Below are positions 1,610 to 58,575 of a stretch of DNA of 64,000 nt, piece by piece. The position numbers were made by a program, and so were the translations under genes. Source of the stretch: an uncultured Candidatus Saccharibacteria bacterium (GTDB lineage: Bacteria; Patescibacteriota; Saccharimonadia; Saccharimonadales; Saccharimonadaceae); NCBI GenBank assembly GCA_946408595.1, contig CAMJSX010000002.1, forward strand, positions 31,578-95,577, given 5' to 3'. Below the pieces are notes generated by a model. That model saw only the letters and a program-made list of their open reading frames with translations. It was not told the DNA's origin and did no database searches. The number at the start of each line of letters is the position of its first letter. Within the stretch, counting starts at the first letter, position 1.

Positions 1610-2086
1610 ATGCCACGTAAAACTACCAAATCCTTGGAGCGCAAAGTTTCTCCAGACCGCAAATACCAATCCATCATGGTACAAAGACTTATCAACAAGT
1701 CGATGCTTGATGGCAAAAAGCAAGCTGCTGAACGTGCTGTTTATTCAGCTATCGAAGGTGCTGCTAAAAAATTGAAATCTGAAAATCCAGTGGAAGTTTT
1801 GGAAAAAGCAATTGCCAACGTCTCGCCAGACTTTGAAGTAAAGTCTCGCCGTGTTGGTGGCGCTAACTACCAAATTCCATTTCCAATTTCTGGACACCGC
1901 CAAATGCATTTTGCCTTTACTTGGCTTGTACAATCGGCTCGTGCACGTGGTGGTATGCCATATGCCAAGCGTCTAGAAGCAGAAATCGTTGATGCTTACA
2001 ACCAAACCGGTGCCGCCTTCAAGAAGAAAGAAGATTGTCACCGCATGGCTGAAGCCAACCGTGCCTTTGCACACTTTGCAAGATAA
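1610..2086 (+). CDS. rpsG: 30S ribosomal protein S7
   Basis: MPRK, EVKSRRVGGANYQIP, HRMAEANRAFAH. Confidence 0.99.
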   Translation: MPRKTTKSLERKVSPDRKYQSIMVQRLINKSMLDGKKQAAERAVYSAIEGAAKKLKSENPVEVLEKAIANVSPDFEVKSRRVGGANYQIPFPISGHRQMHFAFTWLVQSARARGGMPYAKRLEAEIVDAYNQTGAAFKKKEDCHRMAEANRAFAHFAR

Positions 2087-2253
2087 AATTGTTTAAATGC
2101 TATTCTTTCGAAGCATTTAGAATCACCCATATAAAAAATACAACTCCACGAACTTTCGAGGAAACTGTAATTTCCGAGAAAGCCCGACTGGTGTTGTATT
2201 TTTTATCTTGGCGTGATTTTAACGCTGAGAAAAATAGCATTTAAATAATTTTA
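2084..2253. repeat. 170-bp imperfect palindrome, hairpin element E1
   Basis: Outer arms 2084-2104/2233-2253 (21 bp, 1 mismatch); inner perfect 14-bp arms ataaaaaatacaac 2131-2144 / 2193-2206; core cgaggaaactgtaatttccgag. Confidence 0.9.
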
Positions 2254-2288
2254 TGTGGTATAATAGGCATAAGAATAATAGGAGGTTT

Positions 2289-3293
2289 ATGATAAAAGTA
2301 GCGATTAATGGTTTTGGTAGGATTGGACGCAACGCGTTCAAAATCTTGATGAGCCGAAAAGATGCGGAAGTCGTAGCAATCAATGACATCACTGATGCAA
2401 AGACTTTAGCACACCTACTCAAACATGACTCTTCCTATGGAACTTACGACCAAGACGTGTCATTTGACGAACATTCTATTACGGTTGGTGGCAAAAAAGT
2501 ACCAATTTATGCCGAAAAAGATCCTCACGACTTACCTTGGAAGGATTTAGGCGTAGACGTCGTGATTGAATCTACCGGTTTTTTCACTAAACCAGAAGAT
2601 GCCAAGGCACATATCGAGGCTGGTGCCAAGCGTGTGGTAATCTCAGCCCCAGCCAAAGGTGAAGGCGCAAAGACCGTAGTGCTCGGCGTAAACGAAGATG
2701 TTCTAAGTGCTGATGATGAAATTATTTCCAATGCTTCTTGTACTACAAACTGTATCGCACCAATTATGAAGGTTCTGGAAGATAATCTTGGAATTGAAAA
2801 AGCCATGATGACGACAGTACATTCTTATACTGGTTCGCAAAGAATTCTAGATGCACCAGCCAAAGACTTACGTGAAGCACGTTCAGCTGCCGAAAATATT
2901 GTTCCAACCACTACCGGTGCGTCCAAAGCTGCTGCACTAACTATCCCAAGCCTCACGGGTAAATTCAACGGGCTTTCAGTAAGAGTCCCAACCCCAGTAG
3001 TGTCCTTGTCAGACATCACCGCTATCGTCAAAAAAGACACCACCAAAGAAGAGCTAACCGAATTGTTCAAAAAAGTGGCTAAAGAACCGTATTACGAAGG
3101 TATTATAGGAATCACAGAAGAAGAGTTGGTCTCATCCGACTTTATTGGCGACCCACATTCCTGTATTGTAGATTTACCACTCATTGACGTCGTCGGCGGA
3201 AATATGATCAAAGTAGTCGCTTGGTATGACAACGAATGGGGTTATTCCAATCGTTTGGTTGAACTAACCGTAGACTACGGTGGAGAAAAATAA
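2289..3293 (+). CDS. gap: Glyceraldehyde-3-phosphate dehydrogenase type I
   Basis: INGFGRIGR, ASCTTNC, WYDNEWGYS; RBS GGAGG; extended -10 at 2256-2264. Confidence 0.99.
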   Translation: MIKVAINGFGRIGRNAFKILMSRKDAEVVAINDITDAKTLAHLLKHDSSYGTYDQDVSFDEHSITVGGKKVPIYAEKDPHDLPWKDLGVDVVIESTGFFTKPEDAKAHIEAGAKRVVISAPAKGEGAKTVVLGVNEDVLSADDEIISNASCTTNCIAPIMKVLEDNLGIEKAMMTTVHSYTGSQRILDAPAKDLREARSAAENIVPTTTGASKAAALTIPSLTGKFNGLSVRVPTPVVSLSDITAIVKKDTTKEELTELFKKVAKEPYYEGIIGITEEELVSSDFIGDPHSCIVDLPLIDVVGGNMIKVVAWYDNEWGYSNRLVELTVDYGGEK

Positions 3294-8790: not shown

Positions 8791-10140
8791 ATGGACGAGA
8801 GGTTAAGACAAAAACTTAGTAAACTCCCGGTTTCACCGGGGGTTTATTTTCATAAAAATAAATCTGGCGAAATTATCTATGTCGGCAAAGCTGCAGTTTT
8901 AAAGAACCGCGTTCGTCAGTATTTTCAAAAATCACACAAAGACACTAAGACCGAAGCCTTAGTTGCAGAGATTTACGACACAGACTGGATCGTCGTAGAT
9001 ACTGAAATGGATGCGTTGTTTTTGGAGTCTGAAATGATTAAGCGTTACATGCCAAAATGGAACATTCTATTACGTGATGACAAAACCGTATCCTATGTTC
9101 GTATTTCCATGCAAGACGAAATACCATATGTTTCTTTTACGCGCACACCGATGGATGATAAAGCGGTATATATAGGCCCTTTTTATGGTAAATTGGTAGT
9201 CGAAAAAGCCCTCCGGACGCTTCGACGAATTTTCCCATATTATGACAAACCCTACACCGGCAAAAAGACTTTAAATACTGACTTAAAACTCACGCCAGGA
9301 ATTGAAATCGGAAACTGTACTCCTAAAGATTATAAAAGAAACCTACGAAAACTAATTAGATACCTTGAGGGCGATCGCGAAAAACTCTTAAAAGAGCTCG
9401 AAAAAACTATGTACGACGAGGCTTCTAAAGGGAATTATGAACTAGCGGCCGAAGCCCGTAACCAATTGTTTGGCTTAAAAGAACTAAAGAAAAAGATCGT
9501 CTTTTCCGACAAAGAATTCTTAGACATCTCATCAGACCAGGCCCTGTCTGATTTGCAAAAAATACTAGGACTAGAAAAACCACCGCGCAGAATCGAAGGA
9601 TATGATATTTCGCACCAGTCTGGCACCAATACGGTGGCAAGCATGGTGGTATTTATTAATGGCACCGCAACGCGAAGCGAGTATCGCAAATTCAAAATCC
9701 GCTCTTCAAAAAATGACGATTTAAAAAGCATGGTAGAAGTAATTACGAGACGGTTAAAACACGCCGAATGGGACTTTCCAGACTTAATAATTCTAGACGG
9801 TGGCATCAACCAAGTAAATGTCGTCTTACCACTAGTAGAACCATACCACATACCAGTAATCGGCCGCGACAAATCCGGCAACCATTCCCACAACGCCCAT
9901 GTAAACCTGATAATTCCAGGCAAGTTGTCGAATCGAAGGGCCTCCGGAGCGCGGCAGCGCGAGGATGAGTGCCGGCCGCCCGTGGCGACGGGCCGGCCGG
10001 ACACAGCCCGAGATCGACACTTGCTGGAATTATCTCCCGGTTCACACGTCGCGCGCCTAATCGCCCGCATCGACGAAGAATCGCACCGATTTGCCATCAC
10101 GTATCATTCTTTACTCAAACGAAAAAATATGCTAAAGTAG
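8791..10140 (+). CDS. uvrC: Excinuclease UvrC-like, short form without C-terminal HhH
   Basis: GIY-YIG (PGVYFH...IIYVGKA..LKNRVRQYF), RIEGYDISH, PDLIILDGG, ESHRFAITYH. Confidence 0.92.
   Translation: MDERLRQKLSKLPVSPGVYFHKNKSGEIIYVGKAAVLKNRVRQYFQKSHKDTKTEALVAEIYDTDWIVVDTEMDALFLESEMIKRYMPKWNILLRDDKTVSYVRISMQDEIPYVSFTRTPMDDKAVYIGPFYGKLVVEKALRTLRRIFPYYDKPYTGKKTLNTDLKLTPGIEIGNCTPKDYKRNLRKLIRYLEGDREKLLKELEKTMYDEASKGNYELAAEARNQLFGLKELKKKIVFSDKEFLDISSDQALSDLQKILGLEKPPRRIEGYDISHQSGTNTVASMVVFINGTATRSEYRKFKIRSSKNDDLKSMVEVITRRLKHAEWDFPDLIILDGGINQVNVVLPLVEPYHIPVIGRDKSGNHSHNAHVNLIIPGKLSNRRASGARQREDECRPPVATGRPDTARDRHLLELSPGSHVARLIARIDEESHRFAITYHSLLKRKNMLK
9909..10034. repeat. 126-bp GC-rich palindrome in frame within uvrC
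   Basis: Arms gataattccaggcaagttgtcga / tcgacacttgctggaattatc; inner hairpin ccggccgcccgt-ggcg-acgggccggccgg. Confidence 0.85.
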
Positions 10141-12645: not shown

Positions 12646-12736
12646 GCGCCTGTGGTGGAATTGGTAGACACGCTACCTTGAGGTGGTAGTGGCCAAACCT
12701 ACGGCTGTGCTAGTTCGAGTCTAGTCAGGCGCACCA
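12646..12736 (+). tRNA. tRNA-Leu(GAG), CCA encoded
   Basis: Acceptor gcgcctg/caggcgc, D-arm ggaattggtagac, anticodon stem ctacc/ggtag with loop ttGAGgt, long variable arm, T-arm gttcgagt. Confidence 0.95.
12716..12736 (+). repeat. att core, left copy (tRNA 3' end)
   Basis: cgagtctagtcaggcgcacca, identical to 18558-18578. Confidence 0.95.
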
Positions 12737-14307
12737 AATGTAGATTTAATATATTTATGTGCTAATTCGATAGGGTCTTTATATCTGTAAAAGACCCTAT
12801 TTTGTTGGTCAATTTCCCAGTTCAAGAATATTTCTCGCGCCAAAAGGTCTTTTCCGACTGGGTTTCTAGCTCTCATCTGTTGTTCGAGCATATTAAGCGA
12901 GTTCAAGAACTTTTCTTGATTCATCTTCAAACCCTCTGGGTCTATGATTTGTGATTCGACTTTGGCTAGCTCTTGTTCTATATTTATCAAATCTTCTTGT
13001 AGCATCTCGATTTGTTCGCGAACCTTTTGTTTTACGATTTCCGGCGTCATGCTATCGAACTTAGAGTAAGTCGTAGCGTGTTCGTTAATCTTCGCTTGTT
13101 TACGGCGTTTAGCGCCTAATAAGCTACGTTTTTCAATGATTAGCTTGTCGAGCTTAACGTCAACGTATTCCTTTAGGTCTTTTAGATGTCGGTTATAATC
13201 TTTCTCGTCAAACTTTAGCTCGCCTAAGGCTTTGTAAATTTCTTCTAGTATTACCTTAACGCGAACGGCGCGTGGCTTTCTGGAGCACTCTTTGTTCTCG
13301 CATCTAGCGTTTAAATAATATGTTCCGTTATATCCGCGACTACGCGATATATACATATAGCGTCCGCACTCTCGGCATTTAATAAATTGCCTAAATGGTA
13401 GGAATATATGGCCTTTTTGCTTGTATTTAACTACATTACGGCGCGTTCGGCTCCTTGTTAGTTCTTGGACGGCGTTATAGTCGCTCTCGCTAATCATGGG
13501 TTTAAAATTAGGGTTCAACTCGCGCAAATCGACAGATGTTCCAGACTGAACTAAGATTCCGTAATAGAAAGGGTCGCGAAATATAGAGGTTGCCATTTTG
13601 TCGCTAATCTCTATACGTCGCTTTGTCTTATTCTTGCGCGTAATCTTCGTTATACGATGAACGTCATGTGCGCGCCAGTATTCTAGAATCTCGGCTATCG
13701 TAGAACCCTCTAAACGCATTTTCCAGCCCTCTTGGATATAATAGAAATTCTCGTTAGGCTCATAAAAGCCGGTTATTTCGCTACGAGTATAACCCCATTT
13801 CGGCACGCCAGACGACTTGCCTTGTTCTAGGTTTGAGTCCATGCCACGTTGCACGCTCTCGCTAAGATGTTCTGAATATTGTTTAGACAAAGCGAACTGG
13901 ATATTAAGGTTAAGTTTTCCGCTCGCGTTATTTGTAAACGGATGCGTTGGAAATTGCAGGTCTTTAATAACATCGTTATCTACCATATCGACTATCATGC
14001 CGGCCTCGAGCATATTGCGAGCTAGTCGGTCAGGATGCCACGCGATAATGCCGTCAAACTTACCGCTTTCAATATCTTTTAGCATCTGGGTAAATAAAGG
14101 GCGGTTTCCAGATTTCTTGGCTGATTTTGATTCCTGAATCGGCTTGCCAACTACTTTTAAATTATGCCTTAATGCATACTCCTCGCAGTCGGCTATTTGG
14201 TCGGGTAATGATTTAGCTTGCGCCTCTACATCTTCAGATGATTTGCGAGCATAAATAACATAGCGTAAAGGCTTTTTACTATTCCCATATCCATTAGTTA
14301 TAAGCAC
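12721..14307 (-). CDS. Large serine recombinase/integrase
   Basis: YVIYARKSSED catalytic Ser, DRLAR, recombinase domain, CxxC zinc ribbon, coiled coil; GTG start with AAGGAG RBS; stop lies inside att core. Confidence 0.95.
   Translation of the reverse strand: MLITNGYGNSKKPLRYVIYARKSSEDVEAQAKSLPDQIADCEEYALRHNLKVVGKPIQESKSAKKSGNRPLFTQMLKDIESGKFDGIIAWHPDRLARNMLEAGMIVDMVDNDVIKDLQFPTHPFTNNASGKLNLNIQFALSKQYSEHLSESVQRGMDSNLEQGKSSGVPKWGYTRSEITGFYEPNENFYYIQEGWKMRLEGSTIAEILEYWRAHDVHRITKITRKNKTKRRIEISDKMATSIFRDPFYYGILVQSGTSVDLRELNPNFKPMISESDYNAVQELTRSRTRRNVVKYKQKGHIFLPFRQFIKCRECGRYMYISRSRGYNGTYYLNARCENKECSRKPRAVRVKVILEEIYKALGELKFDEKDYNRHLKDLKEYVDVKLDKLIIEKRSLLGAKRRKQAKINEHATTYSKFDSMTPEIVKQKVREQIEMLQEDLINIEQELAKVESQIIDPEGLKMNQEKFLNSLNMLEQQMRARNPVGKDLLAREIFLNWEIDQQNRVFYRYKDPIELAHKYIKSTFGAPD
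12770..12800 (+). terminator. 11-bp inverted repeat downstream of tRNA, inside integrase CDS
   Basis: atagggtcttt-9 nt-aaagaccctat followed by ttt. Confidence 0.55.
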
Positions 14308-15200: not shown

Positions 15201-15956
15201 TTACTTTTTAAATACGAATAAATATTCATGCGCCAGTAATAAGAAATTGTATTTAACGCTATTCGTTTTCCAGTATCCGGTCGCTCGACAATTATGCTGT
15301 TCTTTCATAATGATTTCTTTTAGCTTAAAGCCAGCATCCTCAAATACTTGCATCGTTTTAAAACTAAGAGGGATGACATGGCCTTTTTGGCGCGTATCGC
15401 CCATTAGAATCGCGCAGAACTTGCCTTTCTTTAATACGCGATAACTTTCACTTGCGACGGCTTTCATTTGTTCTAGGAACTCATCTACTTTAAAATTCGA
15501 AAGGTCGGCCGGTATATCTTGACCCTCGCTATAATGAATAATGTTTGCGTAAGGCGGATGCGTGCAAATTAAATCTATACTATCGTTCGGCACTCCTTTT
15601 AGTTTTCGCGCATCTCCCTTACGGATATAGACTTTTCCGTCGGCGCCGTCATGCTTGAACTTTACTTTTTCTCGGCATCTTTTAAGAGCGTCATCGTTTA
15701 CGTCTAAGCCTAGAATATTTCTATTTAATAATTTAGCCTCTACTAGAGTAGTTCCGCCTCCGGCGAACTGGTCTAATACCATATCGCCCTCGCTAGAGTA
15801 GCGGAGAAGAATATTGCGCGGAATATATGGCGACCAGTTTCCGCGCCATTTCGCATCGTGGGTAGCCCAATTACCACGATTAGGGAAACTCCAGACGCTA
15901 GTCATTTCTAACTCAAAATCGTCTGGCTCCCATTTCTTAATAGTTTTATCGGGCAT
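15201..15956 (-). CDS. Amino (m6A/m4C) DNA methyltransferase
   Basis: Motif I DQFAGGGT followed by motif IV THPPY. Confidence 0.9.
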   Translation of the reverse strand: MPDKTIKKWEPDDFELEMTSVWSFPNRGNWATHDAKWRGNWSPYIPRNILLRYSSEGDMVLDQFAGGGTTLVEAKLLNRNILGLDVNDDALKRCREKVKFKHDGADGKVYIRKGDARKLKGVPNDSIDLICTHPPYANIIHYSEGQDIPADLSNFKVDEFLEQMKAVASESYRVLKKGKFCAILMGDTRQKGHVIPLSFKTMQVFEDAGFKLKEIIMKEQHNCRATGYWKTNSVKYNFLLLAHEYLFVFKK

Positions 15957-15961
15957 AGGCG

Positions 15962-16816
15962 CTAAAACCTTTCTATTACGCCACTCTCGAGGTCTTTAAT
16001 ATTATAGACATCATCTAATACGTCAAACGTTTCTTCTAGGTTGTTTCTGGCGCTGTTCCAGCCCTTTCCGTCGGTAAACCATGCAAACTTAAAGCCGTCT
16101 ATCGTTTTAGCCTCAAGTGCTAGCGTCTTGTAGCTACGAGCAGTTTCATTGAGTTTAGAGCCACCACTACCATAAAAATTAGTCTCAATTCCGTAGATAT
16201 TGTTAGCGGTCTTAATTACGAAATCAAATCGTTTTTCGGCTTTACCTTGATTAGAAATAGCAGAAAGGTCGATATTCCATTTATTTTCGATTTCGCTAAG
16301 ATTCATCTCTTTAAAGTAATTTTCGCCTTTAACGTATCCGGCTTTTTGGATATAGCCCTCTACGAGATTCTCCATTAAATGACCGCCACGATTCTTGCGT
16401 CCGTTAGAGTCTAGGCCAGTCTCTACGCCGGTGGCGTAATCTACTAGGTTGCTAATGATATGATTTGCGATAAGGTCGAATAGGCCAGTTTTTCGCATAA
16501 ATACCTTGTATTGTTCTACGGAGTAATTCATCTTATCGAACCTATAATTAAACTCTCCGTCCTCGTCTAGTGCGTAAATCTCATTAGCGCGAACGGCTAG
16601 TAAAATAGGAATACATTTTAGCGTTTCTGGGTATTTGGTAATAAGCGCATCAAACTCTCGCTCAATATTTTGCGAGCCTACGAGTGCATTTAATATATTT
16701 AATTCGACCTTGATAGCATCTACGTTCTTATGAATCTTTGGAAAGTCGATATAGTAGCCATAGTCGGCAATACTTTCGCGGAACTCTCCTAGCCATGCGT
16801 TAAAGTTTCTATTCAT
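15962..16816 (-). CDS. DpnII/MboI-family type II restriction endonuclease (GATC)
   Basis: GVETGLDSNGRKNRGG, KRFDFVI, IETNFYGSGGSKLNETARSY, WFTDGKGW. Confidence 0.93.
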   Translation of the reverse strand: MNRNFNAWLGEFRESIADYGYYIDFPKIHKNVDAIKVELNILNALVGSQNIEREFDALITKYPETLKCIPILLAVRANEIYALDEDGEFNYRFDKMNYSVEQYKVFMRKTGLFDLIANHIISNLVDYATGVETGLDSNGRKNRGGHLMENLVEGYIQKAGYVKGENYFKEMNLSEIENKWNIDLSAISNQGKAEKRFDFVIKTANNIYGIETNFYGSGGSKLNETARSYKTLALEAKTIDGFKFAWFTDGKGWNSARNNLEETFDVLDDVYNIKDLESGVIERF

Positions 16817-16827: not shown

Positions 16828-17904
16828 CTAGTTATTAAAATTTGATATTAACAATTCACTAATTTTGCCACGCGCGTCGCTATTGCGGTTTATCATACGC
16901 GTTGCAGAAACGCGTTTTATATTCTGTTTCGAATAGGCTTTGTCGAAGAAATCGTCGTCTTTGTTGGTGTTCTTTGGGTCGGAATTGCTGACGACTATCT
17001 TCGCTCCTTTATTGTCTAGTTCTTGCACGAAACGAGCAAGCTCAAGCTGATTCTTATCGTCGAATAGTTCTTCGGTATAAGATGTAAAGTTTGCGGTCGG
17101 AGTTAGTGGCCTGTATGGGGGGTCGAAATATACAAAAGTTTTATCGTCTATAAAGTCGGCAGACTCTTTATAATCTCCGCATACTATTTTGACGTCCTTG
17201 AGCTTTTTTGAAATGGCTCTAAGGTTATCCTCGTTGCAAATTTGGGGATTCTTGTAAGCGCCAATAGGCACGTTAAAATCGCCTTTCTTATTAACTCGAT
17301 AAAGTCCATTAAAGCAGGTTCTATTTAGAAAAATCATGAGCATAGATTTTTCTGGATTAAGGTCGGCTCTATCCATGTGTTTTAATTCATTAAAACGACC
17401 GCGCGCCTTTATATACATATCTTTCCGGTCGGCATCGTCTAGTTCTAAATAGGCCTTTTCAACTGATTTTAGTCGCTCTATAAATTCATCTACGTTATCA
17501 CGAATCGCAATATAAGTATCTATAAGGTCTTTGTTAATATCGCTAATATAAACCTCGTCTGGAGAGAACTTGTTTAGAACATCAAACAATACGGCGCCAC
17601 CACCAACGAAAGGCTCCGCGTATTTCGTAATCGTTTTATCTTTTTCAAAAGGGTAATAAGCGCTAATTTCTTTAAGTAGTTGGCCTTTACCGCCAGCCCA
17701 CTTTAAGAAAGGTTTAGCATCTAAATTATTTTTTGGGTTGTCTTTTTTTCTTGCATCTAGAGGTTTTAGGGCGTTCTCCGGAATTATCCATGCATTAGCT
17801 ACAAATGTTGCACCCTCAATCCGGTTTTCAGAACAAAGAGTAGCGACTCTACGTTGCGAAATACCCCATTTTGTCGCAATATCTTTGGCCGAAACAAACG
17901 CCAT
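16828..17904 (-). CDS. Dam/DpnM-family adenine methyltransferase with N-terminal HTH
   Basis: PFLKWAGGK, EPFVGGGAV, NRTCFNGLYRVN, YFDPPY; N-terminal SAKDIATKWGISQRRVATLC; RBS GGAGG. Confidence 0.95.
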   Translation of the reverse strand: MAFVSAKDIATKWGISQRRVATLCSENRIEGATFVANAWIIPENALKPLDARKKDNPKNNLDAKPFLKWAGGKGQLLKEISAYYPFEKDKTITKYAEPFVGGGAVLFDVLNKFSPDEVYISDINKDLIDTYIAIRDNVDEFIERLKSVEKAYLELDDADRKDMYIKARGRFNELKHMDRADLNPEKSMLMIFLNRTCFNGLYRVNKKGDFNVPIGAYKNPQICNEDNLRAISKKLKDVKIVCGDYKESADFIDDKTFVYFDPPYRPLTPTANFTSYTEELFDDKNQLELARFVQELDNKGAKIVVSNSDPKNTNKDDDFFDKAYSKQNIKRVSATRMINRNSDARGKISELLISNFNN

Positions 17905-17933
17905 ATTTTCCTCCACAATTAACTAATACTTAT

Positions 17934-21730: not shown

Positions 21731-21845
21731 AATCGTCACCTCCTTTTAAAATACTACCCCCCCCCAGACGAATCTGGGCGGGTGGGCGCTGAGTTAGATT
21801 TTAGCAAAAATATTTAGGGTTTTCAAAGTTAAGCGGAATGGGCGG

Positions 21846-23759
21846 CTAGGAGCCAGCCACGCAGCGGACTGAGTACCCGTAGAACTTGCTGTAGTCATAC
21901 GTCCCGGGGATAATGCTGTTTCTGGATAAGTACAGGTAGTAGGCGCCGTTAATACTGATAGCGGACGACGACCAATAGCGACCACTCACGTCACGATCGT
22001 CCGCATAGGCACCATTCCAGTACCCGGAGAAAACAAAGTTGTTAGGATATGTACGCCAATCTTTAGAACCTTGAGTAGAAGTATTATTGGACATTTGAGT
22101 ATTTAAGTAATAGAAACCACCTGTGGTATTGCCGCCACCAGTGCCAGTGCCATTATTACCATATGGTAAATGCCAACTAGCTGGGCAAAGGTCACCGTCT
22201 ACGTTGCCAGAAGATTTACTATAAGTACCATTCCCAGCAGTAGCAGAATACCAGTTATAGTAGTTACCATAGCTGTGCCATTTAGAAGTTGCGTTACTGC
22301 CATTATGACTTGGGGTGAGGCTAGAGTCTGAGAGTCTAGTATTATTGGTATTTAGCATGGTTTGGTCATCACAAGCAGCGTTATAGCTATTACACCAGGT
22401 TCCACTATTGGAAGCAGCTAGATGGTCTTCTATGGTACCATTGGCATAGTCTGTTTTTAATGTAACAATGTCATTATTGCCTGTATCGTGTAATGGGTTA
22501 TGAGTATTTGTGGTAGTAAGCGTAGCAGAATCATCTAGTCTTAAGTTCTCTATCATCCACCAGTTACCATCAGCTAATTTAGCTACTGCATAAACATCAT
22601 GGTCTCGTTCATCTTCTAGGGCTATTACGGTACCATTCGGAGCTGAAGTATAGTTAGTATAGGTAGTAGAATTAAAGGTTTGCATAGTAATGCCTGTTTC
22701 TTTAGCAATCCAGACTGGATAAAGCACTGCACCACCTGAAACATCTAGACCACGGGCATCTTGTGGATTAGTAGAGATAGTTTCGTTTGGACCATAGATA
22801 GTAGAGCTACTGGTAGCTTCAAAGTCTTTGCTCCAACCAGCAAAGCCATAGCCTTCGCGTTTGAAGTTAGGAGCGATGAGAGTAGCAGTGGAGTTAGCTG
22901 TAGCAGAAATCGCACCAGCTCGTGGTGAGGCAGTTCTAAGGGCTGCGGCGCTACTATCTTGGGTATAAGGAAGTGAGCTCATATCACCTTCTGTATCACT
23001 AGTATTTGGAGCAAAGATAATAGCATTGTCTGGAGCAACGCTTGCGCTAATTGGAGACATTGGTTTATTAGACTGATCACTCTTGTTTGGATGAACTAAT
23101 GTGTATTTCACTTGTCCAGTATATGTACCAGCAGGTTGAGTAGCGGAGACATAGGCATCATAAGTAGTAGTAATAGAAGAGCCAGTACCATTATTATTAG
23201 TATTTAAGTCAGTACCGGATGTTCTATATGCTACACGTTTATATTCGGTAGGTACTATGTGCCAGTTAGTAAAGTTATCAGTACTGTTATTATTAGCTGA
23301 TACTCCATCATCAATGGTAGCAGCATAAGTACCTGACATAGCTGCTAGTTTCATAGACCAAGAAGAAGTAGTGGCTCCGGATGAATAAATGCCAGTATTA
23401 ATGTCGTTAGTTATGTCACTAGTACTAGTTGCTCCGCTCCAGTGGAGTTTATTGTTACCATACTCATCATTAGTGTAGCCTATAGCATATATAGCAAAGC
23501 CATTACTATCATTACAGAAGACTTTGAGGGTGGTTTGGCCGATACCATTAGTATAGTCAGTACCAGAATAAGTACCGTTTAATATAGTAGCACTGTGAGC
23601 AGTATTAGTAGTGCCGGACATGGTACAGGATTCTGCAATATTAATGGTGGTAGTGGTGACTGCACTATCCGCTAAGACAGAAGAAGATAAAAGAAGAAAA
23701 GATAAAACAGAAAAGCCCATTAAACTTAATATCGTATAGAAACGTATGTTAACCTTCAT
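21846..23759 (-). CDS. Exported protein: WxL-like N-domain, InlB-type B-repeat, C-terminal Fib_succ_major domain
   Basis: LADGNWWMIENL, GNYYNW, CPASWHLP, GRYWSSS, GYSVRCV. Confidence 0.85.
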   Translation of the reverse strand: MKVNIRFYTILSLMGFSVLSFLLLSSSVLADSAVTTTTINIAESCTMSGTTNTAHSATILNGTYSGTDYTNGIGQTTLKVFCNDSNGFAIYAIGYTNDEYGNNKLHWSGATSTSDITNDINTGIYSSGATTSSWSMKLAAMSGTYAATIDDGVSANNNSTDNFTNWHIVPTEYKRVAYRTSGTDLNTNNNGTGSSITTTYDAYVSATQPAGTYTGQVKYTLVHPNKSDQSNKPMSPISASVAPDNAIIFAPNTSDTEGDMSSLPYTQDSSAAALRTASPRAGAISATANSTATLIAPNFKREGYGFAGWSKDFEATSSSTIYGPNETISTNPQDARGLDVSGGAVLYPVWIAKETGITMQTFNSTTYTNYTSAPNGTVIALEDERDHDVYAVAKLADGNWWMIENLRLDDSATLTTTNTHNPLHDTGNNDIVTLKTDYANGTIEDHLAASNSGTWCNSYNAACDDQTMLNTNNTRLSDSSLTPSHNGSNATSKWHSYGNYYNWYSATAGNGTYSKSSGNVDGDLCPASWHLPYGNNGTGTGGGNTTGGFYYLNTQMSNNTSTQGSKDWRTYPNNFVFSGYWNGAYADDRDVSGRYWSSSAISINGAYYLYLSRNSIIPGTYDYSKFYGYSVRCVAGS

Positions 23760-23884
23760 ATACTATATATTATAGCATAAGCTAAATTAAAACACCAACA
23801 TATATTTTTTATAAACGGGTGGCTTTCTTGATTTTTTGGAAAAAGTGTGCTATAATGAAGATATATACTAATTTTAACGAAACA

Positions 23885-24642: not shown

Positions 24643-25233
24643 ATGACGGAAATATCCGTAGAACAAATCAAAAAATTAAAAGAACTTTCAGGCGCTGGTT
24701 TAACTGATGCTAAGCAAGCTTTGGTTGAAGCCAAAGGTGACTTTGATAAAGCACTCGAAGCTATGCGCAAAAAAGGTCTTACTAAAGCTGAAAAACGTGG
24801 TGATCGCGAAACTCGCGAAGGTCTCGTTGAGGCTTACATCCACGATGGTCGCCTTGGCGCTATCGTTGAAGTTAACTGTGAAACTTCTTTCGTCGCTAAA
24901 ACTGACGAGTTTAAGACTTTGGCTCACCAAATCGCCATGCAAGTGGCTTCCATGAACCCACTTTACGTATCTGAAGAAGATATTCCAGCTGAAGTTCGCG
25001 AAGCTAAAATGAAAGAACTTGAAGAAAACTTCAAAGGCCCAGCCAACATGAAGGAACAAATCCTTTCTGGCCAAGTCAAAAAGGCTTTCTCAGACAAGGT
25101 TTTAATGAATCAACCATACATCTTGGATGACACCAAGACTGTCGAGCAATTCGTCAAAGAAGCCATTGCTAAAACCGGTGAGAACATCACCATTCGTCAA
25201 TTCAAACGCATCGAACTTGGCGTAACCGAGTAA
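24643..25233 (+). CDS. tsf: Elongation factor Ts, short form
   Basis: IKKLKELSGAGLTDAK, EVNCETSFVAK. Confidence 0.98.
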   Translation: MTEISVEQIKKLKELSGAGLTDAKQALVEAKGDFDKALEAMRKKGLTKAEKRGDRETREGLVEAYIHDGRLGAIVEVNCETSFVAKTDEFKTLAHQIAMQVASMNPLYVSEEDIPAEVREAKMKELEENFKGPANMKEQILSGQVKKAFSDKVLMNQPYILDDTKTVEQFVKEAIAKTGENITIRQFKRIELGVTE

Positions 25234-25394
25234 AAAAATACTGAAAAAGGCGACATTTTGAAATCGCCCGATAAAAAATTACAACAGTCACGGACGAGCG
25301 AGGAAACTGAAATCTCGGAGCGAGTCCGCCTGACCTGTTGTAATTTTTATACGGCGCGTATTTCAACGTTGCCGTTTCAGTATTTTTTACTCGG
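25226..25394. repeat. 169-bp imperfect palindrome, hairpin element E2
   Basis: ccgagtaaaaaaatactgaaa / tttcagtattttttactcgg; inner ataaaaaattacaac / gttgtaatttttat; core cgaggaaactgaaatctcggag; homologous to E1. Confidence 0.9.
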
Positions 25395-25435
25395 CAATAA
25401 CTATGTTATAATTATCTTATAAGTAAGGAGTTATT

Positions 25436-25981
25436 ATGTTTGACACCAGTAAAGAACGCAAAGCGATGGATGAAGTCGTGGCGCGTTTTAATGATGAAAT
25501 GAAAAAAGTCCGCACTGGACGTGCACATCCAGACATGTTGTCTTCCATCAAAGTCGAAGCCTATGGTCAGTTTATGCCATTAAATCAAGTGGCTAATGTG
25601 ACTGCCGCAGACGCAACTTTACTCGTGATTACACCGTTTGATCCATCCACCATTCAGGCTATTGCTTCAGCCATTCGCGCCGATCAATCACTGGGTCTAA
25701 ATCCAGCCGATGATGGTCGTGTAGTACGTGTACCTATTCCAGCTCTTACCGAAGAGCGCCGCAAGGAAATCGTCAAAAACGCCTCTGCCAAGGTTGAGCA
25801 AGCTAAAGTAGCCTTAAGAAACGTCCGCGAAGACGCCCGCAAAGGCTTGAAAGCCGCCGAGGAGTTAAGTGAAGACGTCAAAAAACGCGCTGAAAAAGAA
25901 ATCGACGATTTAACCAAAGAATTCACTGATAAAATCGAATCCGCCTTCAAAGCAAAGTCAGATGAGATTATGAAATTATAA
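25436..25981 (+). CDS. frr: Ribosome recycling factor
   Basis: VRTGRAHP, IPALTEERRKEIVK, VALRNVRED. Confidence 0.98.
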   Translation: MFDTSKERKAMDEVVARFNDEMKKVRTGRAHPDMLSSIKVEAYGQFMPLNQVANVTAADATLLVITPFDPSTIQAIASAIRADQSLGLNPADDGRVVRVPIPALTEERRKEIVKNASAKVEQAKVALRNVREDARKGLKAAEELSEDVKKRAEKEIDDLTKEFTDKIESAFKAKSDEIMKL

Positions 25982-37844: not shown

Positions 37845-38780
37845 ATGAGTGGGCAAGTAGATTATGCCACTTTAGATAAAATCAAAAAACGCATTCGAGC
37901 ATGCGATTATTTGTCAGTTGCTCAGTTATACTTAAAAAACAATTATCTACTTAAATACGATTTATCATTTGATGATATTAAACCAAGATTACTCGGGCAT
38001 TGGGGTACCTGCCATGGGATCAATGTAGCCTACGCTAATCTAAAAAGCTTCTTTAATACAGACACAAATTTTAGTTTTGTGTTAGGACCGGGTCATGGAT
38101 TCCCAGCTCTACAAGCTAACCTTTATTATGATGGTGTCTTGTCAAAATACGACGAAAAAGCAACCCTAGACGAAAAAGGCTTGGGCTACCTCTGCCGTCA
38201 TTTTTCATGGCCAGATGGCTTTCCATCACATGCCAGCCCAATGACACCAGGAATCATTACCGAAGGTGGCGAGCTAGGCTATGCTCTTGCTAATGCTTAT
38301 GGAGTTGCACTCGGTCATCCAGAAAAAACTTTAGCAGTATTAATTGGCGACGGCGAATTAGAAACTGCCACAGCCATAGATTCATTAAATCTACGGAATA
38401 TTATGGCTAGCCCTTCGAACGGAAAAGTGCTACCCATCCTTCATCTAAATGGGCATAAAATTTCAGCACCATCATTATACGCACGCAAATCCGAAAGGGA
38501 ATTAAACGAAATGATTCGTGGGTTCGGGTTCTCACCAATTTGGATTTACGGTAGCAATCCAGACGATTTTCAGAAGGCTTTGCAAAAAGAAGTGGAATCC
38601 CCATTTTATATTTTACGTACAGCAAAAGGCGAAACTGGTCCAAACTTACATCATGAAGCACATCAAATCCCATTAAAAAATCCCGCTACAGACGAAAATG
38701 AATTGCATGAATTAGAAGAATGGTTAAAATCATATCATTTTGAAGAATTATTCGACCAGGAGAAAGGATTCATCATATGA
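37845..38780 (+). CDS. Phosphoketolase N-terminal (TPP-binding) part
   Basis: KPRLLGHWGT, GPGHG, EGGELGYAL, GDGE, LPILHLNG. Confidence 0.92.
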   Translation: MSGQVDYATLDKIKKRIRACDYLSVAQLYLKNNYLLKYDLSFDDIKPRLLGHWGTCHGINVAYANLKSFFNTDTNFSFVLGPGHGFPALQANLYYDGVLSKYDEKATLDEKGLGYLCRHFSWPDGFPSHASPMTPGIITEGGELGYALANAYGVALGHPEKTLAVLIGDGELETATAIDSLNLRNIMASPSNGKVLPILHLNGHKISAPSLYARKSERELNEMIRGFGFSPIWIYGSNPDDFQKALQKEVESPFYILRTAKGETGPNLHHEAHQIPLKNPATDENELHELEEWLKSYHFEELFDQEKGFII

Positions 38781-39949
38781 TAGATTTTGTTGAACGACCA
38801 GGAGAAGAACTCAAATCACCAGCTGAAAGAATTGGAAACCTTCTCGCCGAAACGCTAAAGAACAATCCATATTTTTATTTCTTCTCGCCAGATGAGACGA
38901 CATCAAATCGCTTTACGACAGTCTTTGATGTAGAAAAACGAGCCTGGGGAGATTTGCCAATCAAATCATGGGACTTACCAGAAGCACCAGACGGCCGCAT
39001 TGTCGAAATGTTGTCTGAAAATGTACTTTTTTCAGTAATGACCGGACATTTATCAACCGGTGAGCAAGCCATGATGGGAAGTTATGAAGCCTTTTTCCCG
39101 ATCATCACGGCGCAACTTCTTCAGCAAATCAAATTCATCAAACAAGCCAAATCTGTATCTTGGCGTGAACCAATGCCAGCCATAAACTTACTATCCACCT
39201 CTACTTGTTGGCGACAAGATCATAACGGGTTCACTCATCAATCACCTGCGCTGATTTCAACACTCCTCAGTCTACCATCAAACCTGGCGAACTGTATTTT
39301 CCCAGTTGATGACATAGCGGCGGAAGAAGCTTTTCATTTTATGCTCAGTTCGCGCGATGTTGTAAATCTTACAACATTTAATAAAAATCCTCTACCTAGG
39401 TATATCGACTCGCATCATGCTAAATACCTATTTGACAATGGTGGCGCATCAATCTACCAATTTGCCTCAGACGAAACACCGGATATTGTTTTCACGGCAG
39501 CTGGTGACATTGTAACACGAGAAACTTTGGAAGCAATTAGTATACTACGAGAAGATATACCGAAGCTAAAAACTAGGTTCGTAGGCATCAATGCTTTATC
39601 ATATCGAGCAATTGGTACGACAGAAAACAAACTATCACAAGATAAATTCGACGAACTATTCTTAAAACATGTCCCGATTATCGCAAACTTCCATGGTTAC
39701 CCAGAAACCTTAGAAAACATTCTAGAAAACTACACCGAAAGGCGAAGACTGAGAGTGCACGGGTTCAACGAAGAAGGTTCTACCACGACGCCATTCGAAA
39801 TGCTTCGCAAAAATGCAGCCTCGCGTTATGATATCGCATTTGACGTCGCAAATCTACTTGGACAAGAACGACTGGCGACCAAATACCGTAATCTCCTTGA
39901 CGCCAATCACGACCACGCTGTGCAATTTGGCGAAGATTTGATAAAATAA
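38777..39949 (+). CDS. Phosphoketolase central/C-terminal part
   Basis: FSPDETTSNR, EMLSE, SYEAF, WRQDHNGFTHQ, EEGSTTTPF; ATGA overlap. Confidence 0.92.
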   Translation: MIDFVERPGEELKSPAERIGNLLAETLKNNPYFYFFSPDETTSNRFTTVFDVEKRAWGDLPIKSWDLPEAPDGRIVEMLSENVLFSVMTGHLSTGEQAMMGSYEAFFPIITAQLLQQIKFIKQAKSVSWREPMPAINLLSTSTCWRQDHNGFTHQSPALISTLLSLPSNLANCIFPVDDIAAEEAFHFMLSSRDVVNLTTFNKNPLPRYIDSHHAKYLFDNGGASIYQFASDETPDIVFTAAGDIVTRETLEAISILREDIPKLKTRFVGINALSYRAIGTTENKLSQDKFDELFLKHVPIIANFHGYPETLENILENYTERRRLRVHGFNEEGSTTTPFEMLRKNAASRYDIAFDVANLLGQERLATKYRNLLDANHDHAVQFGEDLIK

Positions 39950-52454: not shown

Positions 52455-52559
52455 ACATTTTTCATTGTTTTATGTTATAATGATGAAAACTATGTCTCTT
52501 GTTTTTGAGTGTGGAGCTTAAAAGCGGACGAAAAGTATAATAAATTTAAAAAGGAGCAT

Positions 52560-54659
52560 ATGGCTACTGAGATTAAGGACCTGTCGAAACTTCGCAATAT
52601 TGGTATTATTGCACATATCGATGCAGGCAAAACTACTACTTCCGAGGCGATCCTTTATCGTACCGGACTTAAACACAAAATTGACCTTGTAAAAGGCGGC
52701 ACTGGTGGTGCTGAAACCGACTGGATGGAACAGGAAAAGGAACGTGGTATCACGATTACTTCTGCTGCTGTGACCGTTTATTGGAAGAATCATCAAATCA
52801 ACATTATTGATACACCGGGCCACATCGACTTTACCGCCGAAGTAGAACGTTCACTGCGTGTGCTCGATGGTGCCGTCGTGGTGTTCGATGGTAAAATGGG
52901 CGTCGAAGCTCAATCCGAAACTGTGTGGCGCCAAGCTACCAAATATGGTATTCCACGTATTTGTTTCGTTAACAAAATTAACCAAATCGGTGGTGATTTC
53001 TACAAATCACTTGATTCAATTCACAAGCGTTTGTCCAAGAACGCCGTTGCCATTCATTTGCCAATTGGTTTTGAAAAAGATATTTGTGGTGTCGTAGACC
53101 TCATCGACATGAAAGCCTACACCTACAAAGATTATGCTGATCATGAACTTACCGTTGGTGAAATCCCAGCCGATATGGTTGAAAAAGCCAAAAATGCTCG
53201 CTCCATGTTGATTGAAGAAGCCGTCCAAGCCGATGAAGCCTTGATGGATAAGTATTTCTCACAAGGTGAAGAATCAATCACCGAAATCGAACTTAAAGCC
53301 GCTCTTCGAAAACGCGTACTCGACGGTGACTTCTTCCTAGTTACCGGTGGCGATGGCCGTGGTGTGATTGTTGAGAAAGTTCTCGACCTCATGACCGACT
53401 ATCTTCCTTCTCCACTTGATCGTGACCAAGGTCAAACCATTGGTACCGATCCAAAAACTGGCGACCAAATTGTCCGCAAAGCCGCCAACTCAGAACCTCT
53501 TACAGCTCTTGCGTTTAAGATTGCTACTGACCCATTCGTAGGTAAACTAATCTTCATCCGTGTATATGCTGGTACTCTCAAATCTGGTGATACCGTGATG
53601 AATGCTACAACCGGCGATAAGGAACGCATCGGCCGCTTGGTCCGTATGTATGCCAACGATCGTAATGAGATTTCTGAAATCACCGCTGGCGATATTGCCG
53701 CTGTGGTAGGTCTCAAAAACTGTACTACTGGTACAACCATTTGTAGCCCAGCCCATCCAATCTTACTTGAATCGATTGATTTCCCAGATCCACCGGTATC
53801 TATCGCAGTTGAGCCAAAGACTAAAGCCGATCAGGAAAAAATGGGCATCGGTCTTTCCAAGCTCGCTGAAGAAGATCCTACCTTCCGCGTTCATACTGAT
53901 GAAGAGACCGGCCAAACCATTATTTCAGGTATGGGTGAGCTTCACCTCGAAATCATTATCGATCGTCTGAAGCGTGAACATGGCGTCGAAGCCAACACTG
54001 GTGCTCCACAAGTAGCTTACCGCGAAACCATCCGTGGTGTAGCCGAAGCCCAAGGTAAGCACATCAAGCAGTCTGGTGGTCGTGGTCAATACGGTGACGT
54101 TTGGATTAAGTTTGAGCCAAATGAACCAGGCAAAGGCTTTGAGTTTATTGACCAGATTAAAGGTGGTGTGGTGCCTCAAGAATACCGCAAACCAGTTCAA
54201 AAAGGTGTGGAAGACACCTTGGCTGGCGGCGTTATTGCCGGCTACCCAGTAGTTGACGTTAAAGCGACACTTTATGATGGTTCCTACCACGATGTCGACT
54301 CCTCTGAGCTCGCCTTCACCCTTGCTGGTGCGCTTGCTACTCGCGAAGGTATCAAGAAAGCTAACCCAGTGTTGCTCGAACCAGTAATGAAGATGGAAAT
54401 TACCACTCCAGAAGAATTCATGGGCGACGTTATTGGCGATATCAACTCACGCCGTGGCCGCATCGACGAAATGGAAGACTTGAATGGTGGCGCTAAGCTC
54501 ATTAAAGCTTTCTGTCCACTCGCCAATCTCTTCGGCTACACTGGCGACCTCCGCGGTATGACCCAGGGTCGTGCAGCTTCTTCAATGGAGCTCTTCGCTT
54601 ACGAAGAAGTACCACCAAACGTAGCACAAGAAATTATTGAGAAAAGAAATTCGAAATAA
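52560..54659 (+). CDS. fusA: Elongation factor G
   Basis: [26 protein letters not shown]; RBS AAGGAG. Confidence 0.99.
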
Positions 54660-57700: not shown

Positions 57701-58575
57701 TAAGTGCCGGCTGGTAAGTTTGAGAAAGTCGCTACGCCACTAGCATTAGTAGTGCCAGAAGCAACCAATGCACCATTATCATAGAATTGGTTGGTTTGTT
57801 GGCTATAAATCCGACTACCGCTATTATTATATACACTAAAGGTTATACCCTGAAGGCTAGCACCACCTTGTGGAGTAGCAGTATGAGTTACTGAATCGCG
57901 CTTTTGAACTTTAATGTTGCCAGCCTTATAATCGTTCTCAGCCCACATAATATCTTGGTACTCGCCATTATCAGCATAGGCTGTGCCACTTCGGTCGATC
58001 GTGTAAAGCTGATAGTTTTTAGCTATCACCCAAGCATTAGCATCACTACTAATTAGATTACGTAATTTAGTAATAATTCCATTAACCATAGACTGATCAG
58101 AAGAACTTAAGCGATGATAATCATTAGCATAAATCGCGCCGATTACCGCATGAGAATAGGCATAACGTTTATCGGCATCACTAATACTGCTAAATAAATC
58201 ATTCATTATTGGTCTAGTAATTGAGTTATCAACGGTAGAAACATAAATCATTAATCTGATTAGCCTATTATTCTCTGTATCTGGCAACTTTATGGCCGGG
58301 AAAGTACCTTCAAGTGACTTTTTGCTCGGGTTAGCACAATACCCAGTAATATTTTGGCCACCAGTAGTCACCGAAAAAACACTAGTAGCCCAACCCTGAC
58401 CATATCTAATACTTTCGCCCTTGGAAATTCTAACACTGGCACCATCTTCAGTAACCGCATTAACCTGGGATTGGACGTGCTTTATTGCACCAATCGCCAC
58501 ACTTATTAATGTAATAGCCAAAAAACTGGCTAAAACAACTTTTTTAAAAATAGTTTTTTTATTTAACAAAAGCAT
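54712..58575 (-). CDS. Surface adhesin: candidate thioester domain, 3 SpaA/CnaB-like domains, 5 VaFE/T-Q ester repeats, VPDTG anchor
   Basis: YCANP and YQDIM; KRD/KKD/KKVD domains; VVFE...HEDxxDxxQT repeats; VPDTGYF-TM-basic tail. Confidence 0.85.
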   Translation of the reverse strand: MLLLNKKTIFKKVVLASFLAITLISVAIGAIKHVQSQVNAVTEDGASVRISKGESIRYGQGWATSVFSVTTGGQNITGYCANPSKKSLEGTFPAIKLPDTENNRLIRLMIYVSTVDNSITRPIMNDLFSSISDADKRYAYSHAVIGAIYANDYHRLSSSDQSMVNGIITKLRNLISSDANAWVIAKNYQLYTIDRSGTAYADNGEYQDIMWAENDYKAGNIKVQKRDSVTHTATPQGGASLQGITFSVYNNSGSRIYSQQTNQFYDNGALVASGTTNASGVATFSNLPAGTYSVKETGTNTSYDLTATASQGVTISTNGETKTVTFEDDVKKGSITVYKKDKELGSCNQLGKAKFAGIKFRVINKSANPINYGGNTINNGGVVAEKTLGATDCSVSFDNLPYGNYDVEEVGNSMGYLTTTGSSVTIDSSTSYSVTFSNQVVRGDVKFKKVDQNGQEMANIPFRITSKTTGESHIVVTDSHGVVNTASSVNAHTNHTNGYDSISDINTITYQGYGTWFGKSASSSDVAAADNSLGALPYDTYEIIELSCDANNTCIDIESQKKIFEVSSNNVVVDLGNWENDCFSYTLGTTAVDNSDGDKNIIAGTQAKIKDTIDYCFRVGAEFTIKGTLMDKTTGLFIKDSNGQVIEQTITFTPTEECGQTQMTFQFDASALAGHEIVVFERAYEGDKFVAVHEDIDDAAQTINIVSLGTTATDNKDADKYVVAESGAKIKDRIVYCLKAGTEYTIKGVLMDKATGEALMINGATVEESVKVTPTENCGSIDMVFELDASALAGHEIVVFETAYQGNKTVVTHENINDPAQTVDIISLGTTAVDNADEDKFIEINPSSKIKDTINYCLKPNTAFTIKGTLVDKATGEALMVNGAAIEESVDITTEGACGQAEMVFELDTSLLAGHEIVVFERVYQGNRIVAAHEDVNDAAQTVSVIDFSTFAENGKEEEEEPEPEPEEIDMGGDLKKDDEGEQDGEEEGEEEGEEEEEEEEVDPVILKKQVESDEKATIKDTIKYCLKPNTTFTFKGVLMDKETGEALKKDGEIIEESIEVVTTDACGEAEMIFEVDTSSLAGHDLVVFEKLYYDDDLIMSHEDIEDEGQTVYIIDLTTYATNMETGSKDVLISSGVVKIRDVVRYCLKAGLKYKVKGILMDKSAEKPLLIDGKTVEQTITFIPENTCGETEMVYEFDASGLTDMDVVIFEDVYLGGTLLIRHEDYGNLDETFYLLTSVPDTGYFTGNVNGGSERSIVVVSVIVPVAMICSYGAIRKLQVRKKFLDR

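Follow-up and report, generated by a model that had tools for sequence, protein, structure and literature searches.

Background

Several kinds of dispersed palindromic repeat have been described in bacteria. Rickettsia palindromic elements (RPEs) fall into several families, with copies in intergenic regions as well as in frame within unrelated protein genes, and the ERIC/IRU sequences are imperfect palindromes of ~127 bp found in intergenic regions that are transcribed, frequently at the 3′ ends of genes, in either orientation and occasionally within genes (PMC10969869). Another dispersed repeat forms a terminator-like hairpin downstream of genes and represents a copied terminator module, and RNA transcribed from the Correia elements of Neisseria is cleaved by RNase III (PMC10969869). 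Here, we describe two long hairpins, E1 (positions 2084-2253) and E2 (25226-25394), in a 64,000-nt stretch (hereafter the window) of contig CAMJSX010000002.1 (positions 31,578 to 95,577; GenBank assembly GCA_946408595.1) from an uncultured Candidatus Saccharibacteria bacterium, and compare them with these systems. Saccharibacteria and other bacteria belonging to the Candidate Phyla Radiation (CPR) have genomes of tiny size, in which spacers are very short and few mobile elements have been recognised.

[quoted passage not shown] Our analysis shows that both belong to a low-copy palindromic family in ruminant-gut Saccharibacteria. The reading we favour, with moderate confidence, is that this is a new palindromic family resembling RPE, ERIC and SPRITE sequences, low in copy number and exchanged by recombination, whose RNA hairpin would be under selection, probably as a terminator or 3′-end structure. 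In-frame palindromic elements and terminator replacement are, as far as we could find, unreported for CPR bacteria.

Two long hairpins behind rpsG and tsf

Folded end to end as RNA, E1 reaches a minimum free energy of −72.9 kcal/mol against −24.7 ± 3.5 in dinucleotide shuffles (z −14.0), and E2 reaches −78.2 kcal/mol against −35.2 ± 3.5 (z −12.3). A sliding 180-nt scan of the window, corrected for GC content, ranked them as the first and second most extreme folds, bearing out both the positions and the end-to-end folding given by the first-pass annotation. The placement that it described, from a stop codon to just before the next extended −10, also holds: E1 starts with the rpsG stop codon (TAA, 2084-2086), and 2 nt separate its end from the gap extended −10; E2 starts 5 nt ahead of the tsf stop (25231-25233), with 9 nt between its end and the extended −10 of frr. 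The 22-nt core CGAGGAAACTGNAATNTCNGAG occurs twice in the window where 0.02 occurrences are expected, and the inner arm ATAAAAAATACAAC and its complement are found in both elements. Pairwise alignment of E1 with E2 confirmed that the centre is conserved, while the outer arms are unrelated in sequence yet paired within each element.

A covariance model of the family matches only E1 and E2 within the 64 kb. Two unrelated terminator hairpins could look alike by chance, both being A/T-rich and in terminator positions, but the probability of this is negligible given the doubled core, model scores of 77 and 96 bits and more than 20 homologues elsewhere; the core count, the covariation described below and the covariance-model scores refute it.

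Conserved neighbours are indeed missing, as had been remarked, in that fusA does not follow rpsG and pyrH does not follow tsf, but the proposed link to the elements is coincidental. The gap gene follows rpsG on the same strand in 75 of 80 species (spacer 64 to 2224 nt), with or without an element, so the absence of fusA at this place is the usual arrangement in the lineage, and fusA itself is found at 52509-54659 of the same window.

A dispersed, low-copy family

Copies were collected from loci (handles beginning with L) anchored on S7 in 80 species, all of them Candidatus Saccharibacteria or Nanosyncoccus genomes from ruminant-gut metagenomes; from a strict apex-pattern scan of metagenomes (L081, L082 and L083); and by exact-protein look-ups, which yielded the E2 orthologues L094 and L096-L101 and the Wzy copies L102, L103, L109 and L110. 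More than 20 copies besides E1 and E2 lie in at least five genomic contexts across related species (Table 1), in agreement with the dispersed family first proposed. The intergenic copies comprise E1, E2 and 15 or more others. In-frame copies occur in at least five lineages of Wzy_C proteins (P0001, P0003, P0007, P0008 and P0009), the open reading frame (ORF) running through the element. Relative to transcription, some 40% of copies lie in the inverted orientation, and both orientations occur in the rpsG-gap region. The family is restricted to ruminant-gut Saccharibacteria (Nanosyncoccus-like).

The covariance model, built from 15 copies, found no further copies in the window or in 646 kb of sequence examined. 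In each of four bovine-gut metagenomes, 2-9 contigs match the E2 core at 80% or more, which, together with the two copies in 64 kb, suggests few copies per genome. A peptide profile of the frame that is open in E2 and the Wzy copies gave eight candidates among 5.8 billion proteins, none of them significant, indicating that in-frame copies are rare in gene calls.

Core identities do not track the locus. L063, at the rpsG locus, is 86% identical to E2 at the tsf locus and 57-62% identical to E1, L005 and L030 at the rpsG locus; L081, behind a pseudouridine-synthase gene, is 92% identical to L082 behind tsf; and the Wzy copies group together at 72-88%. We therefore read the family's history as vertical descent combined with copying between loci more recent than the species splits, and the element has thus been copied between loci. 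Decay is seen as well: the half copy in L024 ends exactly at the apex loop, where it meets the rpsG terminator, which shows deletion at the hairpin tip.

Structural constraint on the hairpin

Each copy, about 165-170 bp in all, combines a conserved unit of ~115 nt, in which inner inverted repeats surround a non-palindromic apex of ~45 nt, with outer arms of ~25-30 bp that are locus-specific in sequence and near-perfectly paired. The apex includes a closing stem (GGAC/GUCC in most copies), a GA-NN-GA/GA-NN-GA motif of tandem G·A pairs flanking two Watson-Crick pairs, a 5-bp stem and a CUGNAA loop. The middle pairs of the G·A motif covary (GAGCGA/GAGCGA versus GAGUGA/GAACGA), and the 5-bp stem does so freely (GGAAA/UUUCC, CGAAA/UUUCG, CUGAUA/UAUCAG and CGGUA/UACCG). 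On the 3′ arm, every copy has two asymmetric bulges, one of G[A/C]C adjoining the closing stem and one of C facing CCCR. The E2 loop differs among strains (CUGAAA, CUAAUA and CUGAUA), and its outer arm extends into host sequence, the 3′ arm pairing with CCGAGTAA of tsf.

With a full-length MAFFT alignment, RNAalifold recovered nothing beyond the apex, the outer arms being unalignable by sequence, and covariation was therefore assessed with a 36-pair structure written by hand on a 96-nt alignment of 15 diverse copies, with 500 shuffles as the null. Pairing held in 82.8% of cells against 70.4 ± 1.1% in the shuffles, double changes were present in 27 of the 36 pairs where 12.3 ± 2.4 were expected, and the covariation score was 0.354 against 0.154; none of the 500 shuffles reached any of these values. 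Sliding the partners by 1-3 columns as a control lowered pairing to 34-47%. The family is thus neither confined to two copies nor lacking in significant covariation, the combination that the first-pass annotation had named as refuting its claim.

Comparisons between orthologues agree. Between E2 and its L082 orthologue four pairs are fully compensated, one of them joining the synonymous third position of a tsf Thr codon (ACC/ACT) to hairpin position 168. Across nine E2 orthologues there are 9 substitutions in 37 unpaired positions versus about 5 uncompensated breaks in 132 paired ones, and four C>U changes give G·U on the sense strand. In three Wzy lineages the outer arms are wholly different in sequence at orthologous codons, each of them paired. 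The significant covariation and the compensated changes between orthologues show that the family is under structural constraint.

The E1 apex of the window has two A·C mismatches (GAAC/GCCC), at 2151 and 2183. A strain in metagenome run X1 has A>G at 2151 and C>T at 2183, which gives the family-consensus GGAC/GUCC, and two of the three differences in the E1 of other strains restore this stem. The organism is common, as seen from runs X1, X12 and others. The E1 of the window is thus slightly degraded, or uses an alternative CUUUC/GAAAG pairing predicted by RNAfold.

Exchange of whole cassettes between strains

Two loci conspecific with the window, L087 and L092, share flanks that are 99.2% identical over 2086 nt on the left and 99.1% identical over 2442 nt on the right. 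Homology breaks off right at the rpsG stop (2086) and is regained at 2253, and precisely in the E1 slot these sister strains carry a 58-nt canonical terminator in place of 166 nt of the window. Just past the junction, a 36-nt promoter patch has 5 mismatches versus <1% elsewhere. The E1 difference is a whole-cassette replacement through flanking homology, not a clean insertion.

At tsf-frr, remoter relatives without E2 lack the entire hairpin, the joints skipping 164-192 nt, and in L095 an unrelated GC-rich hairpin sits in its place. A search of metagenome contigs for a tsf-frr allele with the outer arms but without the unit found only alleles that lack the whole hairpin. In Wzy, the left outer arm is retained in proteins P0004-6, which lack the inner 120 nt. 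Differences affect 9 of 30 positions in the right flank of the filled allele, all of them (nearly) synonymous and raising pairing with the left arm, whereas filled and shorter alleles are 95% identical elsewhere; the allele distribution indicates that the filled patch moved between lineages by recombination. The element is shown to pass between strains as a whole cassette by homologous recombination.

The Wzy_C proteins P0001-P0120, from Saccharibacteria, range from 444 to 649 aa and show 45-79% identity (leaving out P0001, the query). In an alignment of 13 of them, the E insert, the GC-rich insert and partial remnants (P0015 and P0024), all at one loop, are among the causes of the differing lengths. 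The left arm of the Wzy element encodes a Lys/Asn-rich stretch and its complement a Phe/Leu-rich, membrane-like one.

Probable RNA-level selection and terminator role

The element could instead be selfish or neutral palindromic DNA without host function, its arms kept complementary by quasi-palindrome correction at the DNA level, in which intrastrand template switching copies one arm from the other, compensates changes in one step and can extend the palindrome into its flanks. This would fit outer arms that differ wholly between loci, pair near-perfectly and enter coding sequence (E2 in tsf, and both translated arms in Wzy), as well as the dispensability of the element within a species, the truncated copy L024, the internal-deletion derivatives P0004-6 and the lack of any associated enzyme among those searched for. 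We nevertheless consider it unlikely, since correction at the DNA level predicts equal numbers of G·T and A·C mismatches on both strands. When the two arms of each of 13 copies were aligned to one another, wobble-type (G·U) and reciprocal A·C mismatches stood at 35:18 on the transcribed strand and at 30:23 by the element's own strand, the bias tracking transcription and not orientation. The transcribed strand is also the more stable one in 11 of the 13 copies, whatever the orientation of the element. In the Wzy copies, which are inverted relative to the gene, the mRNA-sense strand is more stable by 15-30 kcal/mol (sense versus antisense: −128.9 vs −111.3, −125.4 vs −95.3 and −128.7 vs −113.4 kcal/mol). 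Together, the strand-specific wobble bias and fold stability favour selection on an RNA hairpin over pure DNA-level palindrome correction.

Selfish DNA also leaves unexplained a U-run in intergenic copies that is reversed in intragenic ones. The inner hairpin of E1 (−23.2 kcal/mol) is followed by U6 (AUUUUUUAU) and that of E2 (−24.3 kcal/mol) by U5 (AAUUUUUAU), and canonical terminators of the same genome lie between −19 and −23 kcal/mol. In 10 of 11 intergenic copies, whichever their orientation, 6-7 of the 8 nt after the inner stem are T, and all three intragenic Wzy lineages have an A-run at the same place (GUUGUG-AAAAACAC and similar), as expected if premature termination within the gene is selected against. 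Neither slot in the window retains another terminator, none being found from rpsG to the gap promoter or from tsf to the frr promoter. These sequence statistics are consistent with an intergenic element transcribed as the 3′ end of the upstream gene, on which selection would keep the long RNA hairpin intact. Its inner stem and U-run would serve as intrinsic terminator and 3′-end protective hairpin of rpsL-rpsG and rpsB-tsf, the element probably standing in for the ordinary terminator found at that place in sister strains. Alternatively, as the likeness to Correia elements suggests, such long stems might equally be RNase III substrates. Of the two proposals made at first, the 3′-UTR RNA module under structural selection holds in part, in that a 3′-UTR hairpin appears to be selected and its covariation is significant.

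Several points weigh against this reading. The G·U asymmetry comes from a small sample of partly related, and so not independent, copies; L030 and L023 show the opposite trend, and a transcription-linked C>T bias could contribute. A simple consensus terminator scan, which calls the L087 terminator, calls neither E1 nor E2 on the + strand, because internal loops interrupt their long stems and the 5′ A-run can pair with the U-run. Across loci, the apex shows more conservation than a plain terminator requires, and its conserved asymmetric bulges are unaccounted for by a terminator. Finally, copy number is low, with two copies in 64 kb and 2-9 contigs in each bovine metagenome, and gives no evidence of active mobility.

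The conserved apex might point to a specific structured RNA, be it a cis-regulatory 3′-UTR element, a small RNA or a protein-binding RNA. The apex is the part best conserved between loci, both of its stems covary, its GA-NN-GA/GA-NN-GA motif is typical of protein-binding RNA, and E1 and E2 both lie behind translation genes. Such a function is very improbable, as the ~40% of copies that are inverted, including old and retained ones in the coding region, give RNA with the complement of the apex. Moreover, other copies lie behind unrelated genes, the loop sequence changes among near-identical strains, E1 is dispensable within its species, and no Rfam match was obtained at gathering or E-value thresholds. 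With Rfam 15 at the gathering score, tRNA-Leu alone matched in the window and nothing in 20 related loci, and at E ≤ 10 the sole matches, far below thresholds, were to generic models of long hairpins (plant miRNA precursors).

Possible modes of spread

The outermost ~25 bp of the arms differ completely between loci, leaving no conserved terminal inverted repeats, only the ends of the inner unit (CATTTTGAAAT / ATTTCAACG). Target duplications, which the first-pass annotation had proposed to look for, are absent from both filled/empty comparisons, namely window versus L087 (166 nt for 58 nt) and Wzy L102 versus the shorter L104 (a 120-nt difference). Pfam searches of 54 window ORFs agreed with its remark that the window has no transposase, and found no RAYT/Y1_Tnp, insertion sequence (IS) partner, or integron or tyrosine integrase either, the sole recombinase being the large serine recombinase of a tRNA-Leu island. 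No transposase lies beside the copies in the loci retrieved. Two core-pattern scans of viral contigs gave 0 matches, blastn of E2 against phage and plasmid collections gave none, and full-text literature searches brought up no account of such elements from Saccharibacteria or CPR bacteria. The E family is therefore not a MITE or REP in the strict sense, for which the ends, the target duplication and the RAYT or IS partner do not fit and the copy number appears low; what stands of that proposal is DNA copied between loci.

A second palindromic module, GGAGCGCGGCAGCGCGAGG...CCGGCCGCCCGUGGCGACGGGCCGGCCGG, is GC-rich (63% GC) and lies within A/T-rich arms. In the window it is in frame in uvrC (~9908-10035, z −5.1; ORF 8791-10140), within the UvrC RNase H-like endonuclease domain, and elsewhere it occupies the rpsG-gap spacer of L009, L010, L013, L091 and L093, the position behind tsf in L095 and the Wzy loop of L108. 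The L087 terminator stem resembles the arms of the L091 GC-rich element, which suggests that terminators may be targets or deletion remnants of such elements.

These observations bear on the possibility that the element is a recombination or insertion substrate folding as single-stranded DNA, as do attC sites, IS200/IS605 ends and REPINs. An enzyme would then recognise the conserved apex and its extrahelical bases and insert the unit at the tips of hairpins such as terminators. The asymmetric features of all copies (the bulged C opposite CCCR, the G[A/C]C bulge and the G·A motif with covarying middle pairs) would suit such recognition; removal of the unit from E2, L082 or L063 leaves joined outer arms that resemble an ordinary A-run/stem/T-run terminator; the unrelated GC-rich family uses the same three slots in other lineages; and the L087 terminator stem matches the arms in L091. 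We rate this as distinctly unlikely, because no Y1/HUH enzyme, integrase or other candidate is encoded in the window or beside any copy in the loci retrieved, no allele with outer arms only was found (relatives without E2 or E1 lose the whole hairpin), and the apex loop differs among close strains. The shared slots can also be explained by selection, few places in compact genomes tolerating long hairpins, and the L087 terminator could just as well have arisen by deletion from the GC-rich element.

A related, speculative possibility, to which we give similarly low credence, is transposase-independent spread, in which a structured unit is copied into an existing hairpin tip by template switching at folded single-stranded DNA. 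It is suggested by the replacement of E and GC-rich families by one another at the same slots and by the resemblance of outer arms to host hairpins. Terminators would then be both targets and decay products of such elements and, if true, this would be a mode of mobility not described for bacterial repeats, in CPR genomes that have few mobile elements.

Implications

One palindromic family is embedded in frame in membrane proteins, is swapped between strains by recombination and, on the reading we favour, stands in for core translation-operon terminators, and a second, GC-rich family embeds in frame in a repair protein. These genomes thus contain DNA, selfish or domesticated, that resembles RPEs. 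This matters in practice: the hairpins break short-read assemblies, many contigs ending at the apex, in-frame elements create unexplained 40-60-residue inserts in annotated proteins, and spacers behind conserved genes become hypervariable strain markers. The alternation of hairpin and plain terminator within one species offers a natural experiment on how long 3′ hairpins affect mRNA in a hard-to-manipulate organism.

Feature coordinates

Table 1. Features of E1, E2 and their flanking genes in the window, and loci that carry further copies of the family
Feature	Position or loci	Strand	Basis or remark
E1 full hairpin	2084-2253	+	fold z −14, strongest in the window
E1 segment replaced by 58-nt canonical terminator in conspecific L087/L092	2087-2252	+	flank comparison
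E1 conserved unit CATTTAGAAT...ATTTTAACG	2114-2224	+	alignments; common to copies at other loci
E1 covariance-model match	2120-2214	+	77 bits, E 1e-16
E1 outer arms, locus-specific	2084-2113 and 2225-2253	+	alignments
E1 apex: stem, tandem G·A motif, 5-bp stem GGAAA/UUUCC, loop CUGUAA	2148-2188	+	
E1 T-run right after inner stem, putative termination point	2199-2204	+	sequence
E2 full hairpin, takes in last 5 coding bases and stop codon of tsf	25226-25394	+	fold z −12.3
E2 conserved unit CATTTTGAAAT...ATTTCAACG	25254-25368	+	alignments; 86-92% identical to copies at other loci
E2 covariance-model match	25261-25357	+	96.5 bits
E2 outer arms	25226-25253 and 25369-25394	+	alignments
E2 apex: GGAC/GUCC stem, GAGCGA/GAGCGA tandem G·A motif, short stem, loop CUGAAA	25290-25330	+	
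E2 T-run after inner stem	25344-25348	+	sequence
E2 second T-run, after outer stem	25383-25388	+	sequence
rpsG (S7), gene upstream of E1	1610-2086	+	Pfam PF00177, E 5e-53
gap extended −10 TGGTATAAT	2256-2264	+	kept in all relatives' intergenic regions
gap ORF	2289-3293	+	Pfam Gp_dh_N/C
tsf (EF-Ts), gene upstream of E2	24643-25233	+	Pfam PF00889
frr extended −10 TGTTATAAT	25404-25412	+	sequence
frr ORF	25436-25981	+	Pfam RRF
Copies in rpsG-gap spacer, forward	L005, L060		
Copies in rpsG-gap spacer, reverse	L030, L063		
Copy behind rpsG terminator	L022		
Truncated half copy, rpsG-gap	L024 3520-3587		
Copy directly behind tig	L023		
Copies at tsf-frr, E2 orthologues in 8 near relatives	L082, L094, L096-L101		
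Copy behind pseudouridine-synthase gene	L081		
Copies in frame within Wzy_C gene	L083, L102, L103, L109, L110		

Neighbouring loci

The spacer between rpsG and gap is a hot spot: 17 of the 80 species have a bare terminator there (110 nt or less), and most species have one of several unrelated long hairpins, L008, L021, L067 and L076 sharing a family that starts TAAAAACAGTTTATTTAGAAAC. Nine species carry an extra gene of 240-360 aa there, on the opposite strand in eight of the nine, and a Pfam search for transposases among these genes returned nothing but a weak NUMOD1 helix-turn-helix. In the window the str operon is split into rpsL-rpsG (1194-2086), fusA (52509-54659), tuf (58763-59947) and rpsJ (61036-61362). 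Between fusA and tuf, the opposite strand (54712-58620) encodes a surface protein of 1302 aa that has thioester and SpaA domains and five T-Q ester-bond domains.

The segment 12646-20600 resembles an island integrated at tRNA-Leu (12646-12736). It encodes the large serine recombinase (12721-14307, minus strand), a DUF2726 protein, a helix-turn-helix protein, two ORFs without a Pfam match, and a DpnII-type restriction-modification system with methylases at 15201-15956 and 16828-17916 and an endonuclease at 15962-16816. Upstream of rpsB, the clpP-rpsB gap (21760-23826, ~2.07 kb) contains a 637-aa ORF on the minus strand (21846-23759) without a Pfam match; L096 and L097, two near relatives in which clpP directly adjoins rpsB, lack this stretch. 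A phosphoketolase is present as two ORFs with a 4-nt overlap, XFP_N at 37845-38780 and XFP with XFP_C at 38777-39949, which could reflect a frameshift, a split gene or a sequencing error.

Comparison with known systems

Among the known classes considered, 6S RNA, retron msr/msd, attC, REP and ribosomal-protein autoregulatory sites were dropped, since defining features are lacking or orientations and contexts are mixed. As in REP/REPIN sequences and integron attC sites, structure with extrahelical bases outweighs sequence in the E family, and copies lie right after stop codons. Unlike REPs, which are 20-40 bp long, high in copy number and associated with a RAYT gene, the element spans 115-170 nt and the window has no Y1_Tnp. 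Whereas attC sites combine conserved R″/R′ boxes at the base with a variable tip and an integron integrase, the E family has a conserved tip and a variable base, and its ATACAAC / GTTGTAT sequences depart from the attC consensus RYYYAAC / GTTRRRY. Like Correia elements and classical MITEs, the element is small and non-coding, forms a hairpin when transcribed and could alter the expression of neighbours, but those elements have conserved terminal inverted repeats, a target duplication (TA for Correia) and a related IS, none of which was found here. The described terminator-module repeat differs from it in host and sequence, and E copies are single end-to-end hairpins with a conserved non-palindromic apex that also occur in frame.

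With ERIC/IRU sequences the family shares long RNA hairpins, which in the case of ERIC affect mRNA fate, and presence or absence at orthologous sites. It differs in that the ERIC consensus is full-length, ends included, with 30-700 copies per genome, whereas only the inner ~115 nt are conserved here. With RPEs it shares palindromes of ~100-170 bp in a reduced-genome, host-dependent bacterium, both intergenic and as in-frame peptide loops, and the existence of several families (here E in Wzy and the GC-rich family in uvrC), with neither a known transposase nor a target duplication. Unlike RPEs, the family has a much lower copy number, most copies sit exactly in terminator slots with a U-run, the outer arms are locus-specific, and a strand-specific wobble bias points to RNA-level selection. 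The likeness to RPEs, drawn from features and across different host phyla, is of kind and not of descent. By analogy, then, the E family appears to behave like Rickettsia palindromic elements, ERIC and SPRITE.

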